Positions 15,495-62,812 of a stretch of 64,000 nt of DNA are shown piece after piece. This stretch comes from Escherichia coli (lineage in GTDB: Bacteria > Pseudomonadota > Gammaproteobacteria > Enterobacterales > Enterobacteriaceae), in NCBI RefSeq assembly GCF_050320075.1, contig NZ_CP190018.1, one strand, 5' to 3'. How positions within the stretch are numbered: the first letter of the stretch is position 1; each line of letters begins with the position of its first letter. Made by a program: the position numbers and the translations under genes. Under the pieces are notes generated by a model. The model saw only the letters and a list, made by a program, of their open reading frames with translations. It made no database searches and had not been told where the DNA came from.

Positions 15495-16256
<762 letters not shown>

Positions 16257-16288
16257 TAACGCTACGCCTGTAAAGCGCACTGGCAGTT

Positions 16289-16326
16289 CCCTCTCCCCTC
16301 TGGGGAGAGGATTAGGGTGAGGGGCG
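16289..16326. repeat. GC-rich palindromic intergenic repeat (copy 1)
   Basis: ccctctcccctctggggagaggattagggtgaggggcgc; near-identical inverted copy at 47478-47517. Confidence 0.7.
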
Positions 16327-16394
16327 CAAACCCGCTCCGGGGCCATTAATTACCCTGAATTTGATTATTTACACCACGGTAACAGGAACAACAT

Positions 16395-17054
16395 ATGCAG
16401 TTTGACTGGAGTGCCATCTGGCCTGCCATTCCGCTTCTGATTGAAGGTGCCAAAATGACCCTGTGGATTTCGGTCCTCGGTTTGGCTGGCGGTCTGGTGA
16501 TCGGATTGCTGGCAGGTTTTGCACGCACCTTCGGTGGTTGGATAGCCAACCACGTCGCGCTGGTCTTTATTGAAGTGATCCGCGGCACACCTATCGTCGT
16601 CCAGGTGATGTTTATTTATTTCGCCCTGCCGATGGCGTTTAACGACTTACGCATCGACCCGTTTACTGCGGCGGTGGTCACCATCATGATCAACTCCGGC
16701 GCGTACATTGCGGAAATCACGCGTGGTGCGGTGCTGTCTATTCACAAAGGTTTTCGTGAAGCAGGACTGGCGCTCGGTCTTTCACGTTGGGAAACCATTC
16801 GCTACGTCATTTTACCGCTGGCACTGCGTCGTATGCTGCCGCCGCTGGGTAACCAGTGGATCATCAGTATAAAAGATACCTCGCTGTTTATTGTTATCGG
16901 CGTGGCGGAACTGACCCGTCAGGGGCAAGAAATTATTGCCGGTAACTTCCGCGCCCTTGAGATCTGGAGCGCCGTGGCGGTGTTCTATCTGATTATTACC
17001 CTGGTGCTGAGCTTTATTCTGCGTCGTCTGGAAAGAAGGATGAAAATCCTGTGA
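16395..17054 (+). CDS. glnP: Glutamine ABC transporter permease GlnP
   Basis: 219-aa permease translation; synteny. Confidence 0.95.
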
Positions 17055-17773
17055 TTGAATTTAAAAACGTCTCCAAGCATTTTGGTCCAACCCAGGTGCT
17101 GCACAATATCGATTTGAACATTGCTCAGGGCGAAGTCGTGGTGATTATCGGGCCGTCCGGTTCCGGTAAATCGACCCTGCTGCGCTGCATCAACAAACTG
17201 GAAGAAATCACTTCCGGCGATCTGATTGTCGATGGCCTGAAGGTTAACGATCCGAAAGTTGACGAGCGCCTGATTCGCCAGGAAGCAGGTATGGTGTTCC
17301 AGCAGTTTTACCTCTTCCCGCATCTGACGGCGCTGGAAAACGTCATGTTTGGTCCGCTACGCGTGCGTGGCGCGAACAAAGAAGAGGCGGAAAAACTGGC
17401 GCGTGAGCTGCTGGCGAAAGTCGGCCTGGCAGAACGCGCTCACCACTACCCTTCCGAGCTTTCTGGTGGTCAGCAACAGCGTGTGGCGATTGCCCGTGCG
17501 CTGGCGGTAAAACCGAAAATGATGCTGTTCGATGAACCGACTTCCGCTCTTGACCCGGAACTGCGCCATGAAGTGCTGAAGGTTATGCAGGACCTGGCTG
17601 AAGAAGGGATGACGATGGTGATCGTGACCCACGAAATCGGTTTTGCCGAGAAAGTAGCTTCGCGCCTGATCTTTATCGACAAAGGCCGGATTGCGGAAGA
17701 TGGCGATCCGCAGGTGTTAATCAAGAACCCACCGAGCCAGCGCTTGCAGGAATTTTTGCAGCACGTCTCTTAA
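17051..17773 (+). CDS. glnQ: Glutamine ABC transporter ATP-binding protein GlnQ
   Basis: Walker [10 protein letters not shown], signature LSGGQQQR; 240 aa. Confidence 0.95.
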
Positions 17774-46464: not shown

Positions 46465-47433
<969 letters not shown>

Positions 47434-47477
47434 TGTGGCCGAGATTGCTGACCAGGCTTCTGGTGCAATGCGACCTG

Positions 47478-47517
47478 TCCCCCTCACCCTAACCCTCTCT
47501 CCGGAGGGGCGAGGGGA
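47478..47517. repeat. GC-rich palindromic intergenic repeat (copy 2, inverted relative to copy 1)
   Basis: ccccctcaccctaaccctctctccggaggggcgagggg, reverse-complement match to 16289-16326 with a few substitutions. Confidence 0.7.
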
Positions 47518-47585
47518 CCGTTCGAGCACTTTTTTGACTTGATCGTTAATCTGAGTCGGAAGTACATTCCGGCTTTTTCATCTTG

Positions 47586-49607
47586 TCACGACGCGGCAAT
47601 AAACAGCTCACGCAGCTGATGCAACTGGTCACGAATTTGCGCCGCTTCTTCGAACTCCAGATTCTGCGCGTGTTGCATCATCAACCCTTCCAGTTCATGG
47701 ATCTTCTGCTGCAACGCTTTAGGCGACATATCCATCGGCACATTATCCGGCTCAACAATCGGGCGCGATTTTCCTCTGCCCTTCGCTTTGGTTTTGGCAA
47801 TGTTCTGCCCCAGCGCCAGGATATCGACCACTTTCTTGTTCAAGCCTTGCGGCGTAATGCCGTGTTCCTCGTTGTACTTCTGCTGTTTCTCGCGGCGACG
47901 TTCGGTTTCGCCAATCGCTTTCGCCATTGATGGGGTGATCTTATCGCCGTAGAGAATCGCTTTACCGTTAACGTTACGTGCCGCACGACCAATGGTCTGG
48001 ATCAATGAACGTTCGGAACGCAGGAAGCCTTCTTTGTCAGCGTCGAGGATCGCCACCAGCGACACTTCCGGCATATCCAGACCTTCGCGCAGTAAGTTGA
48101 TCCCTACCAATACGTCGAACTCACCCAGACGCAAGTCGCGGATAATCTCCATACGTTCGACGGTGTCGATATCTGAGTGAAGATAACGCACGCGCTCACC
48201 GTGTTCTTCGAGATATTCAGTGAGATCTTCCGCCATCCGCTTGGTCAGAGTTGTAACCAGTACGCGTTCGTTAATTGCCGCTCGCTGACGAATCTCCGAA
48301 AGAAGATCATCCACCTGTGTTGCTACCGGCCGCACTTCGATAATCGGGTCGAGTAAGCCTGTTGGACGCACCACCTGATCCACCACATCACCACCGGATT
48401 TTTCCAGCTCGTAATTACCCGGCGTCGCCGAAACATAGATGGTTTGCGGCGCTAATGCTTCGAACTCTTCAAATTTCAGCGGACGGTTATCCAGCGCTGA
48501 TGGCAGGCGGAAGCCGTACTCCACCAGAGTCTCTTTACGCGCCCGGTCACCGCGATACATGCCACCAATTTGTGGAATGGTGACGTGAGATTCGTCGACG
48601 ACCAGCAGCCCATCGGCAGGCAGGTAATCAAACAGCGTCGGCGGTGGCTCACCCGGTCCACGACCGGAGAGGAAGCGCGAGTAGTTTTCAATCCCCGAAC
48701 AGTAGCCCAGCTCGTTCATCATCTCCAGATCAAACTGGGTACGCTGGGTCAGCCGCTGCTCTTCCAGCAGTTTGTTGTTTTCCAACAGCACTTTGCGTCT
48801 GGCGGCCAGTTCTTCTTTGATCTCCTCCATCGCCTGTACGATGCGCTCACGTGGCGTGACGTAGTGCGTTTTCGGGTAGATGGTAAAACGTGGAATAGTG
48901 GAAACAATCTGCCCGGTTAGCGGGTCAAATAACGACAATCGTTCCACTTCCTCGTCAAACAGTTCCACGCGAAGTGCAATGTCATCCGATTCTGCCGGGA
49001 AGATATCTATCACCTCACCACGAACGCGGAAAGTACCGCGCTGGAATGCCTGATCATTACGAGCGTATTGCAGCTCCGCCAGTCGGCGCAGGATCGCGCG
49101 CTGATCGATAATCATGCCGACCGTGAGATGGAGCATCATCTTGAGATATAAATCAGGATCGCCCAGACCATAAATCGCGGAAACAGACGCCACCACAACC
49201 ACATCACGCCGCTCCAGCATCGCTTTGGTAGCGGACAAACGCATCTGCTCAATATGTTCGTTTACCGAGGCATCTTTCTCAATGAAGGTGTCGGAACTCG
49301 GTACATAGGCTTCCGGCTGATAGTAGTCGTAGTAGGAGACGAAATATTCCACCGCGTTTTCCGGGAAGAACTCTTTCATTTCGCCGTACAGTTGGGCCGC
49401 CAGCGTTTTGTTGGGCGCCAGTACCATGGTTGGGCGCTGAAGGTCAGCAATGACATTGGCGATGGTGAAGGTTTTCCCGGAGCCAGTTACACCGAGTAAC
49501 GTCTGGTGCGCCAGGCCATCTTCCAGCCCCTCTTCGAGACGTCGAATCGCCTCTGGCTGATCGCCAGAAGGTTTAAAAGCGGAATTCAGTTTGAACGGTT
49601 TACTCAT
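47586..49607 (-). CDS. uvrB: Excinuclease ABC subunit B UvrB
   Basis: 673 aa; GVTGSGKT Walker A; UvrB C-terminal domain. Confidence 0.95.
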
Positions 49608-60070: not shown

Positions 60071-60352
60071 TCACATCCAGCCACGAAGTTGATGCTCAAC
60101 AGCAACCACGTATTCATCGAATATTGACGGTGTTTTCACATCATTAATGATGCGCACGTTTACAAAATATCCGTCTTCCTTAACACATACCGGTTCGCCA
60201 TCTTCATTCAGTTCTCCGGTTTCTTTGTACACGTTACCTATCACGTCAATAAGAATATCATCCTGCATCGACTCATCATCATAATAGCCAGTGCTATCCA
60301 TAAAGGCCGAAAAATCGGCCCTGTCGGCAAATTTAAGTGTTAAATCTTTCAT
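60071..60352 (-). CDS. Small acidic protein translationally coupled to stf (possible fibre assembly/accessory protein)
   Basis: 93 aa; ATG overlaps stf stop (ATGA); no family recognised. Confidence 0.5.
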   Translation of the reverse strand: MKDLTLKFADRADFSAFMDSTGYYDDESMQDDILIDVIGNVYKETGELNEDGEPVCVKEDGYFVNVRIINDVKTPSIFDEYVVAVEHQLRGWM

Positions 60353-62748
60353 TTAATACTCTCCCCCATTTGCGCATCAGTTAATTCTTTATGCCAGAGA
60401 CGAAGATTTCTCAAATGGCCGAATAGATGACGTGTCCCTGATGTGGCTTGACCTCCTATTCTAATAAAGGTCCGCGTTTTTACGCCCGTCCATTCCGTTT
60501 CAATGGTTTTAGTAGCCTCACCGTTAGAAACTACTCGTTTAGTACCGTCAGAATAAATATTAAAACCACCAATGAATTTTCGAACATCCGTTCGACCAGT
60601 AAACAAACTAGAAACGTAACTACTTGTCGACGCTTTATAAGTTTGCATATAAAGCTGACCGTAATATCTCTCGGTTGTGTTAAAAGCGTATGTGATTGAC
60701 TCAATAGGCGGCACACCAGAAAAATCAAAAATACGCGGTGCTACATTAGGGGGAATATCGCCCCAATTCCTGTTAACCTCGACCAAACAAGTAAGCGGTC
60801 TGTTATAAATGTTGTTTTCGGTCGGGATCGTAACCATATCACTCGCACGAGTCGCCGCCGTCGCTCCTGATATAATAAAAGATGATACACAAGGCCCATC
60901 TTCTACTTGTGGGGTGGCCAGATAAATATAGTCACCAGATACGGTTGCCCCGCTCTGCTTAGGAGAATACTGTATCTGAGAGCCTATTTTTAACTCCCCA
61001 TCAATTGCCTGAATTGTTGCCTCTGCAAAAATCCATCCGGTAGCTTCGTCCTTTCTGACTCTCGCTGTAATCCTTGAGGCAGCACCGCCTGTCATATTAA
61101 TTTCAAGCGTTTGTGTATCAATATACGCATCACCAAGAAAAGTTGTTGCGCTACCGTCATATTTATCAAACCGGATACGCAACCTTACCTGCAGTTCTGT
61201 TTTAAAACGACATGAGGTTGTCACGTATTTATTATCGCCTGAGACATCAACTGACTTTGTTGCAGCAATTGATGCCATATTAATGGCTGAGGTTTGCCCA
61301 ATCAGAGAATCGTTACAGACAAACTTTCCATAGGTAAAACCAAAACTATCCGTCCCGGTTTCGGGAACATCCATATTTGACGATCGCCCCCAACTGGCAG
61401 GGCTTTCCGAATTGAGCATGTAGTTCGCTCTTTGCCCCTCAATAAGCAGGCCATCACGTTCAAATCGTGGCTCGTCAATGGCAGCCTCTGTCAGCACACC
61501 AGATTTATTAATATAGGTTGCTTTCGATGCGCGTTTAAACTTTACAACCTTATCGCCAGGCATCGTTATTTCATCATCACCAATAACAATCTTTTTATAT
61601 GACGGCGAAAACCCCGTAATCATATCCAGTGAATCGTTAAACGGTATCCACACATCAGGCAACGGCTGCAAAACTTGTTTATACGGCTCCGCTGCCTGGC
61701 TTGCATACTCTCTGGCTGCGTCTTCACTTGCTTTAGCTGCTGTCTGGCTTGCTGCCGATGCTTGCGCCGAGTTCGCCGCTGTAGTCTCGCTCGCCTTTGC
61801 GTTGTCTTCACTGGTTTTTGCAGCTCTTTGACTGTTGGCTGATGCCGTGGCAGAAGCAGCCGCCGCGCTTGCAGAACCAGCTGCGGCACTCTCGCTTTGG
61901 GCCGCTGCATCCTGACTGTTTTTCGCCGCAGTTTCGCTGGCTTTGGCATTCGTTTCGCTGGTCTTCGCTGCAGTCTCGCTTGTCTTTGCGTTGGTTTCAC
62001 TGGTTTTTGCAGCTCTTTGACTGTTGGCTGATGCCGTGGCAGAAGTAGCCGCCGCACTTGCAGAACTGGCTGCCGCTCTCTCGCTTTGGGCTGCTGCATC
62101 CTGACTGTTTTTTGCTGCGGTAGCGGAGTTTGCTGCGGCACTCTGACTCGATTCTGCAGCCACCTCGCTATTTTTCGCATTAGTTTCGCTGGTCTTTGAA
62201 GCTGTCTCACTCGCTTTTGAGTTGTTTTCTGATTTTTTGGCTGCAGTCGCGGAGTTTGCCGATGCAGTCTGTGAGGCCGCTGCCGCCTGTGCGCTGTTAG
62301 CTGCATTCGTTTCTGAGGTTTTCGCCGCGTTCTTCGATGATGCCGCTGCAGTTTCGGATGTCTTTGCCGCCGCTGCGCTCTGAGAGGCGGCTTCAGCGTT
62401 GCGTGCCGCTTCTTCCACCATTTCCTGAAAACGGCGCAATGCCTCCGGCATGACATCATCTTCCGTCATGGCACCGAGAAAATCATTCAGCGTCCCCGGA
62501 CTGGAACCTTCATAGACGGTAATGGTCCCGGCATGTGAAGGCGGAAAACCTTCAACCAGCAGGATGACGCTGTACTGGCCATACTCAACGTCCATACTGT
62601 AACGCCCGGCTTCATCAGGATTTTCAGAGGCCACCGTGTTCACCAGTACCGTGGTGCTGTTACGCTTTGCCTTCAGTTGAATAGTGCAGTTCTGTATTGG
62701 TTTTCCCGCACCATCTTTCAGCACACCTGAGATTTTTACTGCTGCCAT
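60349..62748 (-). CDS. stf: Side tail fibre protein Stf-like (lambda Stf N-terminus, Ala/Ser/Thr-rich repeat shaft, LamG-like distal domain)
   Basis: N-terminus MAAVKISGVLKDGAGKPIQNCTIQLKAKRNSTTV... matches lambda Stf as I recall it; C-terminus ...FGHLRNLRLWHKELTDAQ resembles LamG-domain ends; ATG at 62748. Confidence 0.8.
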   Translation of the reverse strand: MAAVKISGVLKDGAGKPIQNCTIQLKAKRNSTTVLVNTVASENPDEAGRYSMDVEYGQYSVILLVEGFPPSHAGTITVYEGSSPGTLNDFLGAMTEDDVMPEALRRFQEMVEEAARNAEAASQSAAAAKTSETAAASSKNAAKTSETNAANSAQAAAASQTASANSATAAKKSENNSKASETASKTSETNAKNSEVAAESSQSAAANSATAAKNSQDAAAQSERAAASSASAAATSATASANSQRAAKTSETNAKTSETAAKTSETNAKASETAAKNSQDAAAQSESAAAGSASAAAASATASANSQRAAKTSEDNAKASETTAANSAQASAASQTAAKASEDAAREYASQAAEPYKQVLQPLPDVWIPFNDSLDMITGFSPSYKKIVIGDDEITMPGDKVVKFKRASKATYINKSGVLTEAAIDEPRFERDGLLIEGQRANYMLNSESPASWGRSSNMDVPETGTDSFGFTYGKFVCNDSLIGQTSAINMASIAATKSVDVSGDNKYVTTSCRFKTELQVRLRIRFDKYDGSATTFLGDAYIDTQTLEINMTGGAASRITARVRKDEATGWIFAEATIQAIDGELKIGSQIQYSPKQSGATVSGDYIYLATPQVEDGPCVSSFIISGATAATRASDMVTIPTENNIYNRPLTCLVEVNRNWGDIPPNVAPRIFDFSGVPPIESITYAFNTTERYYGQLYMQTYKASTSSYVSSLFTGRTDVRKFIGGFNIYSDGTKRVVSNGEATKTIETEWTGVKTRTFIRIGGQATSGTRHLFGHLRNLRLWHKELTDAQMGESIK
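61809..62122. repeat. Tandem direct repeat (period 189 bp) inside stf
   Basis: cactggtttttgcagctctttgactgttggctgatgccgtggcagaag... occurs at 61809 and again at 61998. Confidence 0.8.
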
Positions 62749-62812
62749 ATCCACTCCACAAAAAAGCCCGCCTGAACCGGCGGGCTGTCATAACACTGTG
62801 TTACCTGGCTAA

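Follow-up and report, generated by a model that had tools for sequence, protein, structure and literature searches.

A 64-kb stretch of Escherichia coli DNA (hereafter the window) contains two short, GC-rich, palindrome-like intergenic sequences in opposite orientation, and the question they raise is whether these are dedicated control sites of the genes around them or copies of a dispersed repeat that came to lie there. The original prediction described them as near-identical inverted copies of an interspersed element, 'possibly Box C-type', downstream of glnH and between ybhK and uvrB. Two such copies are present, with 36-nt cores at 16289-16324 on the plus strand (site 1, CCCTCTCCCCTCTGGGGAGAGGATTAGGGTGAGGGG) and at 47480-47515 on the minus strand (site 2, CCCTCGCCCCTCCGGAGAGAGGGTTAGGGTGAGGGG), one or two nucleotides from where they had been placed.

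Both cores are built in the same order of C-block, loop, G-block, TTA and a second G-block. Site 1 reads, on the plus strand, block 1 CCCTCTCCCC (16289-16298) followed by the loop TCT, block 2 GGGGAGAGGA (16302-16311) followed by TTA, and block 3 GGGTGAGGGG (16315-16324); site 2 reads, on the minus strand, block 1 CCCTCGCCCC (47515-47506) followed by the loop TCC, block 2 GGAGAGAGGG (47502-47493) followed by TTA, and again GGGTGAGGGG as block 3 (47489-47480). In each copy block 2 has an A where the family has G, at the last base in site 1 and at the third base in site 2. The cores agree at 32 of 36 positions, with mismatches at positions 6, 13, 16 and 23, so that the inverted orientation stands while the supposed near-identity is better called similarity. 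Repeat finding recovers them as an inverted pair of 53 nt (16272-16324 and 47480-47532) with 79% complementarity, the second-longest in the window, and the resemblance between the two sites thus extends about 17 nt past the core on the side of block 1. A 21-nt family pattern, allowed up to three mismatches, matches the window at these two sites alone, where 0.13 matches would be expected by chance; in the shuffled controls two matches were reached in 2 of 100 sequences. A reverse-strand open reading frame of 166 aa (15846-16346, minus strand) crosses site 1 and translates it as ...PHPNPLPRGERE...; it is of the spurious type that Box C copies generate, which gene callers may annotate.

The family to which these cores belong has been catalogued in E. 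coli since the 1990s, having been described in 1992. Its members are defined by a core of 34-37 nt in which a C-block and its complementary G-block enclose a loop of 3-4 nt and are followed, after a 3-nt loop, by another G-block, GGGTGAGGG(G), with TTA as the second loop in type A and a CCG-like second loop in type B. Direct reading finds this layout and the TTA loop in both window cores. Under the name TMECO, Holder et al. (2015; PMC4666352) list 23 motifs of K-12 MG1655 in their Table 1, for example CCCTCGCCCCTCTGGGGAGAGGGTTAGGGTGAGGGG, and equate them with BoxC (Bergler 1992, adjoining envM/fabI) and with the PIT elements of Hoyne and Maher; as the family names are given there, PIT stands for potential intrastrand triplex, and the sources are Bergler 1992, Hoyne et al. 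2000 and Hoyne and Maher 2002. Compared with the copies in Table 1 (PMC4666352), site 1 has 34/36 identity to K-12 TMECO #9, #16, #19 and #22, and site 2 has 35/36 identity to #23. An nhmmer profile made from the 23 K-12 copies (core ± 25 nt) and run against the 64-kb window detects site 1 with E 6e-14 over 16272-16348 (77 nt aligned) and site 2 with E 8e-18 over 47465-47538 (74 nt aligned), and besides these nothing at E < 0.3. Both sequences are Box C members, slightly degenerate, site 1 of type A and site 2 of type A 'mm', and the tentative assignment to Box C proved correct. The K-12 RefSeq record has no annotated repeat features in the region. K-12 carries the glnH-glnP copy as well, yet the list of 23 does not include it, presumably because its block 2 ends in A and not in G.

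The window copies share with published Box C elements the three-block 36-nt core, the type A loop, flanking arms, an intergenic and chromosomal location, multiple copies and strain-variable presence, and differ from them in the one extra block 2 substitution that each carries. Site 1 further departs from the common 'A mm' type in that its 10-nt blocks and a T at position 6 of block 1, where 'A mm' has G, give a perfect stem; its stability across genomes is also unusual for the family.

The flanks add to this picture. We derived an arm consensus by aligning the 23 K-12 loci with their flanks and taking the type A copies; the original Box C consensus, of 56 bp, is that of Bachellier et al. 1999. 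In K-12 the type A copies have CAAAAAnGnGCnCGnnCGGTC as their left arm and AACAGGCCnGCAC as their right arm, with about 20 nt conserved to the left of the 36-nt core and about 13 nt to the right, so that the conserved unit amounts to about 70 nt; some K-12 copies have a longer left arm (TCAGACTGATGACAAAGTC...). In the alignment with the 23 K-12 copies site 2 fits both consensus arms. Its left arm (47516-47553, minus strand, CAGATTAACGATCAAGTCAAAAAAGTGCTCGAACGGTC) is homologous to those of K-12 #11, #13, #21 and #23, adjoins a terminator hairpin and is missing in the EC958 allele of the spacer; its right arm (47434-47479, minus strand, GACAGGTCGCATTGCAC...TCAGCAATCTCGGCCACA) fits the family right flank over the first ~17 nt, and the distal part, TCAGCAATCTC, recurs in the K-12 adk-hemH copy. 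At site 1 the left flank (16270-16288, plus strand, GTAAAGCGCACTGGCAGTT) is moderately similar to the family left arm, and the right flank is a poor fit to the right arm. At other loci of K-12, a type A core is often paired with an inverted type B core 10-27 nt further on, the two forming a palindrome of about 100 nt. Five such pairs in K-12 were reported by Holder et al. (PMC4666352), and the pairing is seen in distant phyla too; sites 1 and 2 are both solo.

How widespread is this repeat? A 119-nt query around site 2, searched against 5426 complete E. coli genomes, finds the family in 5425 of them, at a median of 18 places per genome (range 2-32), so that the genome-wide family that had been anticipated exists and is not limited to the two sites of the window. 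The same query gives 90197 places in total, 90144 of them chromosomal and 53 on plasmids; individual genomes hold 16 (CFSAN061763, the nearest to the window strain), 20 (K-12) and 4 each (the two ST131 genomes listed). Beyond E. coli, we scanned one genome per species for exact occurrences of GGGGAGAGGNTTAGGGTGAGGGG, a 23-nt G-block motif that fixes blocks 2 and 3 in the resulting sample; the matches listed show breadth of distribution and not counts, and there is no enterobacterium among them. Among the matches listed, the core occurs in at least 120 stretches from Pseudomonas, Azospirillum, Asticcacaulis, Methylovirgula, Bradyrhizobium, Mitsuaria, Deltaproteobacteria, Desulfotomaculum and others, and an upstream C-block with a variable first loop is present in 126 of 126 copies, the flanks being lineage-specific. 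This presence in distant phyla agrees with the 'more than 260 prokaryotes' in which Holder et al. report the motif (PMC4666352). In Pseudomonas sp. dw_612 at least 29 copies of the 36-nt core each lie inside a repeat of about 170 nt, which has a second, hairpin-only unit of C-block and G-block upstream (CCCTCTCCCCAnnGGGGAGAGGGGGAAAGGGAGCCGATCT...); the left arm beside the core in dw_612 resembles that of E. coli.

The ybhK-uvrB spacer, correctly named in the original prediction, separates two convergent genes, with the ybhK stop at 47431-47433 and the uvrB stop at 47586-47588 (minus strand). Common to both is a terminator-type hairpin that does not belong to the repeat (47553-47575, plus strand, GAGTCGGAAGTACATTCCGGCTT with a T-run after it). 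Site 2 is placed on the ybhK side of this hairpin, past the ybhK stop, and is therefore expected to be transcribed as part of the ybhK 3' UTR. Across 5424 genomes the spacer has three main alleles: the hairpin only, as in EC958/ST131, where TAA and CACG are followed by AAGCCGGAAGAATATTCCGGCTT; the hairpin with a BIME of two inverted REPs on the uvrB side, as in K-12, where the window strain has none; and the hairpin with a Box C unit on the ybhK side, as in the window. The hairpin is thus present in an allele that is without Box C. Relative to EC958 the window has 119 extra nucleotides, 47434-47552, between the ybhK stop and the hairpin, and at a coverage of at least 80% this allele is found in 349 of the 5424 genomes (~6-7%). 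The simplest history is that of a hairpin-only ancestor filled twice independently. Strain 118UI has a variant of site 2 from which 6 nt (TTAGGG) are lost, fusing blocks 2 and 3, a loss consistent with slippage between GGG repeats. With the site 2 query, identity is no more than 90-95% in about 257 genomes, so most carriers of site 2 may hold the decayed form seen in 118UI.

Site 1 presents a different situation. It begins 33 nt past the stop of glnH (15510-16256, plus strand) and ends 71 nt ahead of the start of glnP (16395-17054, plus strand), which is followed by glnQ (17051-17773, plus strand); its position is thus intercistronic within the glnHPQ operon, which corrects the earlier description of it as simply downstream of glnH. 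K-12 copy #19 is similarly placed between pstA and pstB. The 138-nt glnH-glnP spacer is found in 5401 of the 5426 E. coli genomes (at least 80% coverage, at least 95% identity), and the glnH region of the window, whose strain is not K-12, has 100% identity to CFSAN061763 and 95-99% to most genomes. Five alleles of site 1 have TCT, TAT or GCC as loop 1 and vary in block 3 as well (GGGTGAAGGG, GGGTGA-GGG), the stem blocks being unchanged. The 70 nt downstream of site 1 are likewise invariant in E. coli, so conservation of the stem is weak and non-specific evidence. This conserved 3' part of the spacer comprises the glnP ribosome-binding region, the target of the small RNA GlnZ (PMC9731577), and a literature search for glnHPQ transcript ends turned up the GlnZ-glnP work alone. 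About 19 genomes are without full coverage of the spacer. In strain B2.3 the DNA upstream of glnP is swapped for unrelated AT-rich sequence, the junction falling within block 1 of site 1 (16289-16298), and glnH is not annotated within 220 nt upstream of glnP; either a rearrangement or an insertion at the repeat could account for this.

We sampled other Enterobacterales through contigs that encode GlnH, namely Kosakonia, Yersinia and four metagenomic enterobacterial contigs, and Box C is absent from the glnH-glnP spacer in all of these. Kosakonia and the four enterobacterial contigs have, in the same place, a GC-rich hairpin of unrelated sequence and a T-rich tail after it, such as CAGGGGCGGTCTTCGCCCCTG CTATTTTTG; the spacer of Yersinia is 36 nt long and has no hairpin. 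These hairpins share with that of E. coli their position, 30-40 nt past the glnH stop and ahead of the glnP leader and GlnZ target region, which is conserved, and the predicted stability is comparable (-18.3 kcal/mol for site 1 as against -16.2 to -21.9 kcal/mol for the others), whereas their sequences are unrelated and the E. coli Box C hairpin is without the T-rich tail of its counterparts. Since relatives have a GC-rich hairpin at the same spot, the Box C hairpin probably supplies the intercistronic stem-loop between glnH and glnP, and from this positional equivalence we infer that a stem-loop after glnH may be functionally wanted in Enterobacterales. The analogy is with the REP hairpins of malEFG and hisJQMP, which act as an exonuclease barrier or a partial stop and leave more of the upstream than of the downstream message.

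What structures might the cores themselves adopt? As RNA, site 1 is predicted to form a 9-bp hairpin from blocks 1 and 2 at the -18.3 kcal/mol given above. Dinucleotide shuffles of the core fold about equally well (z = -0.09), because any sequence with a C-run and a G-run pairs. For RNA of the common 'A mm' type, block 1 is predicted to pair with block 3 through a G-U wobble, at -21.5 kcal/mol for the core and -26.2 kcal/mol with flanks (z = -2.96); with the T at position 6 of site 1, RNA folding prefers the hairpin of blocks 1 and 2. As DNA, 36-mers of the family form a hairpin-plus-third-strand triplex in vitro, as established by CD and NMR (PMC4666352). The published definition has ten base triplets, with one mismatch allowed in the 'mm' types. 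Direct pairing of the blocks leaves 9 of 10 triplets intact at site 1, within the published tolerance, and 8 of 10 at site 2, which has the usual G:A mismatch and one more. Blocks 2 and 3 of the consensus also read as the canonical motif G3N3G3N3G3N3G3, and the block 2 substitution of each window copy leaves only three G3 runs. In both copies the substitution would make the published triplex weaker, and it interrupts the G-quadruplex motif.

Several other explanations deserve weighing against these observations. Being GC-rich, palindromic, intergenic and 3' of genes, with a true BIME in the same ybhK-uvrB spacer of K-12, the two elements invite comparison with REP/BIME sequences (palindromic units) or plain intrinsic terminators, an identity that we regard as extremely improbable. 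REP sequences number in the hundreds per genome and often follow the first gene of ABC-transporter operons, where the hairpin stabilises the upstream message. Likeness to Box C ends at their being short GC-rich intergenic palindromes, one of which occupies the ybhK-uvrB spacer as well: the K-12 REPs (GCCGGATGCGGCGTGAACGCCTTATCCGGCCTAC) have no similarity to the window elements, those of that very spacer do not align with them, neither element contains the palindromic-unit consensus GCCGGATGCGGCG...CGCCTTATCCGGCCTAC, and a REP is a single hairpin without a third block. A cognate transposase (RAYT) and binding by IHF, gyrase and Pol I are features of REP (PMC3184786), none of which is known for Box C. 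As for termination, a GC-rich hairpin with an immediate T-run is found at neither core: the sense strand of site 1 has no terminator-like site, the T-run after the hairpin being absent, and the sole such site near site 2 is the separate hairpin at 47553-47575. Rfam at gathering thresholds assigns no family to either site. The functions proposed at the outset (terminator, mRNA stabiliser, recombination site) are those demonstrated for REP; for Box C/PIT, Holder et al. (PMC4666352) relay from Hoyne and Maher 2002 that PIT elements had no promoter or terminator activity. The second reading concerns non-B DNA. The unwound G-rich strand would fold into a hairpin and purine-motif triplex, or into a G-quadruplex (GGGG-AGA-GGG-TTA-GGG-TGA-GGGG), stall replication and drive local rearrangement, Holder's 'source of genomic instability'. 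The in vitro triplex and the flanks of TMECO, which are more variable than control intergenic regions, speak for it (PMC4666352), and Holder et al. explain the polymorphism of TMECO by structure-induced instability and not by mobility (PMC4666352). The three alleles and the 6-nt slippage deletion at site 2, the breakpoint of one genome inside block 1 of site 1, and the G3N3G3N3G3N3G3 motif of the consensus would also fit. We nevertheless judge a functional role of this kind quite unlikely here. The triplex was detected neither in vivo nor in duplex DNA by DMS footprinting, and the NMR data on the 36-mer spoke against a G-quadruplex (PMC4666352); the window copies have their block 2 substitutions; in natural variants of site 1 block 3 is damaged with no consequence; and site 1 is among the most stable spacers seen, its constancy across thousands of genomes arguing against strong instability hotspots.

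A third reading is that Box C is a MITE-like or REP-like miniature element that is still mobile, its three 10-mers being bound by a putative transposase or recombinase with a preference for the 3' side of terminator hairpins. The variation of copy number from 2 to 32 among E. coli genomes, down to 4 in the two ST131 genomes listed, and the conservation, from E. coli to Pseudomonas, of the core with part of the left arm are in keeping with it, as is the presence/absence polymorphism at the three loci where filled and empty sites were compared (ybhK-uvrB, yihR-yihS and fimH-gntP). At yihR-yihS a terminator stem and its T-run are parted exactly by a 77-nt unit, which also fits, and at fimH-gntP 81 nt stand in place of 12 nt, next to a hairpin; a fourth comparison, ygfF-gcvP, was unusable because the ygfF side is missing in other lineages. 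Of the three outcomes, two are replacements and one resembles a clean insertion, which makes deletion from a site already filled in the ancestor possible too. Of 26 copies, 8 are preceded by a local, non-homologous hairpin that stops 31-39 nt short of the core, where the left arm has its tip, and this is suggestive of a preference of Box C for hairpin feet; at site 1, however, the hairpin at this spacing lies inside the glnH coding sequence, and its distance is probably a coincidence. Neither a terminal inverted repeat nor a consistent target duplication was found in the three comparisons, and no transposase was found; the arms are weakly inverted (GTGC.../...GCAC). The TTAA that could be taken for a target duplication at site 2 was rejected as such, since in other copies the positions that align with the left TTAA are internal. 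Holder et al. (PMC4666352) assign almost every one of 823 copies, from 56 strains, to 62 conserved loci, which argues against ongoing transposition, and we consider continuing mobility possible but doubtful. Also conceivable, though unlikely in our estimation, is a composite account in which Box C would be the conserved part of a non-autonomous element that spreads horizontally and inserts at the 3' foot of terminator-type hairpins; the near-invariance of the 36-nt core across phyla would then reflect recognition by a putative recombinase or a universal host factor and not a triplex, site 2 would be a recent insertion, and site 1 a domesticated stem-loop in which the hairpin was kept and the third block left free to decay.

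We consider it highly probable that the two sequences are Box C members that represent relics of a spread non-autonomous repeat, and not dedicated regulatory sites, with site 2 a lineage-restricted insertion and site 1 an old, fixed copy that likely acts as a stem-loop of glnHPQ. Such a repeat would have spread into intergenic spacers, often beside terminator-type hairpins, and would then decay. At site 2, the 119 nt or so inserted between the stop codon of ybhK and the terminator hairpin would be confined to certain lineages and probably neutral. Site 1, as an old copy fixed in E. coli, would be transcribed within the glnHPQ mRNA, where the hairpin of blocks 1 and 2 could be a barrier to 3'-to-5' exonucleases, or a partial stop, resulting in more glnH message than glnPQ message.

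Elsewhere in the window, the sole Rfam match is a full-length Moco riboswitch (RF01055, 46116-46260, minus strand, 103 bits), which by K-12 gene order is presumably upstream of moaA, a known element in its expected place. An open reading frame of 801 aa (60349-62754, minus strand) has long Ala/Ser/Thr-rich repeats (…AAKTSETNAKTSETAAKTSETNAKASE…), with a 156-nt duplication of 90% identity inside it (61777-61932 and 61966-62121, direct), and looks like a phage tail-fibre protein in its composition. By K-12 gene order we take its region to be the ybhC/bio side of the lambda attachment site; given this position and the type of reading frame, the window probably ends inside a lambdoid prophage that is absent from K-12.

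The annotation at both sites can now read 'Box C repeat'. The ybhK-uvrB spacer, which holds a BIME, a Box C unit or neither, is a compact lineage marker and a good locus at which to study the gain and loss of repeats. The glnH-glnP spacer, with a repeat-derived hairpin in E. coli and a terminator-like stem-loop in its relatives, offers a natural test of whether repeats are co-opted in setting the subunit ratios of ABC transporters.
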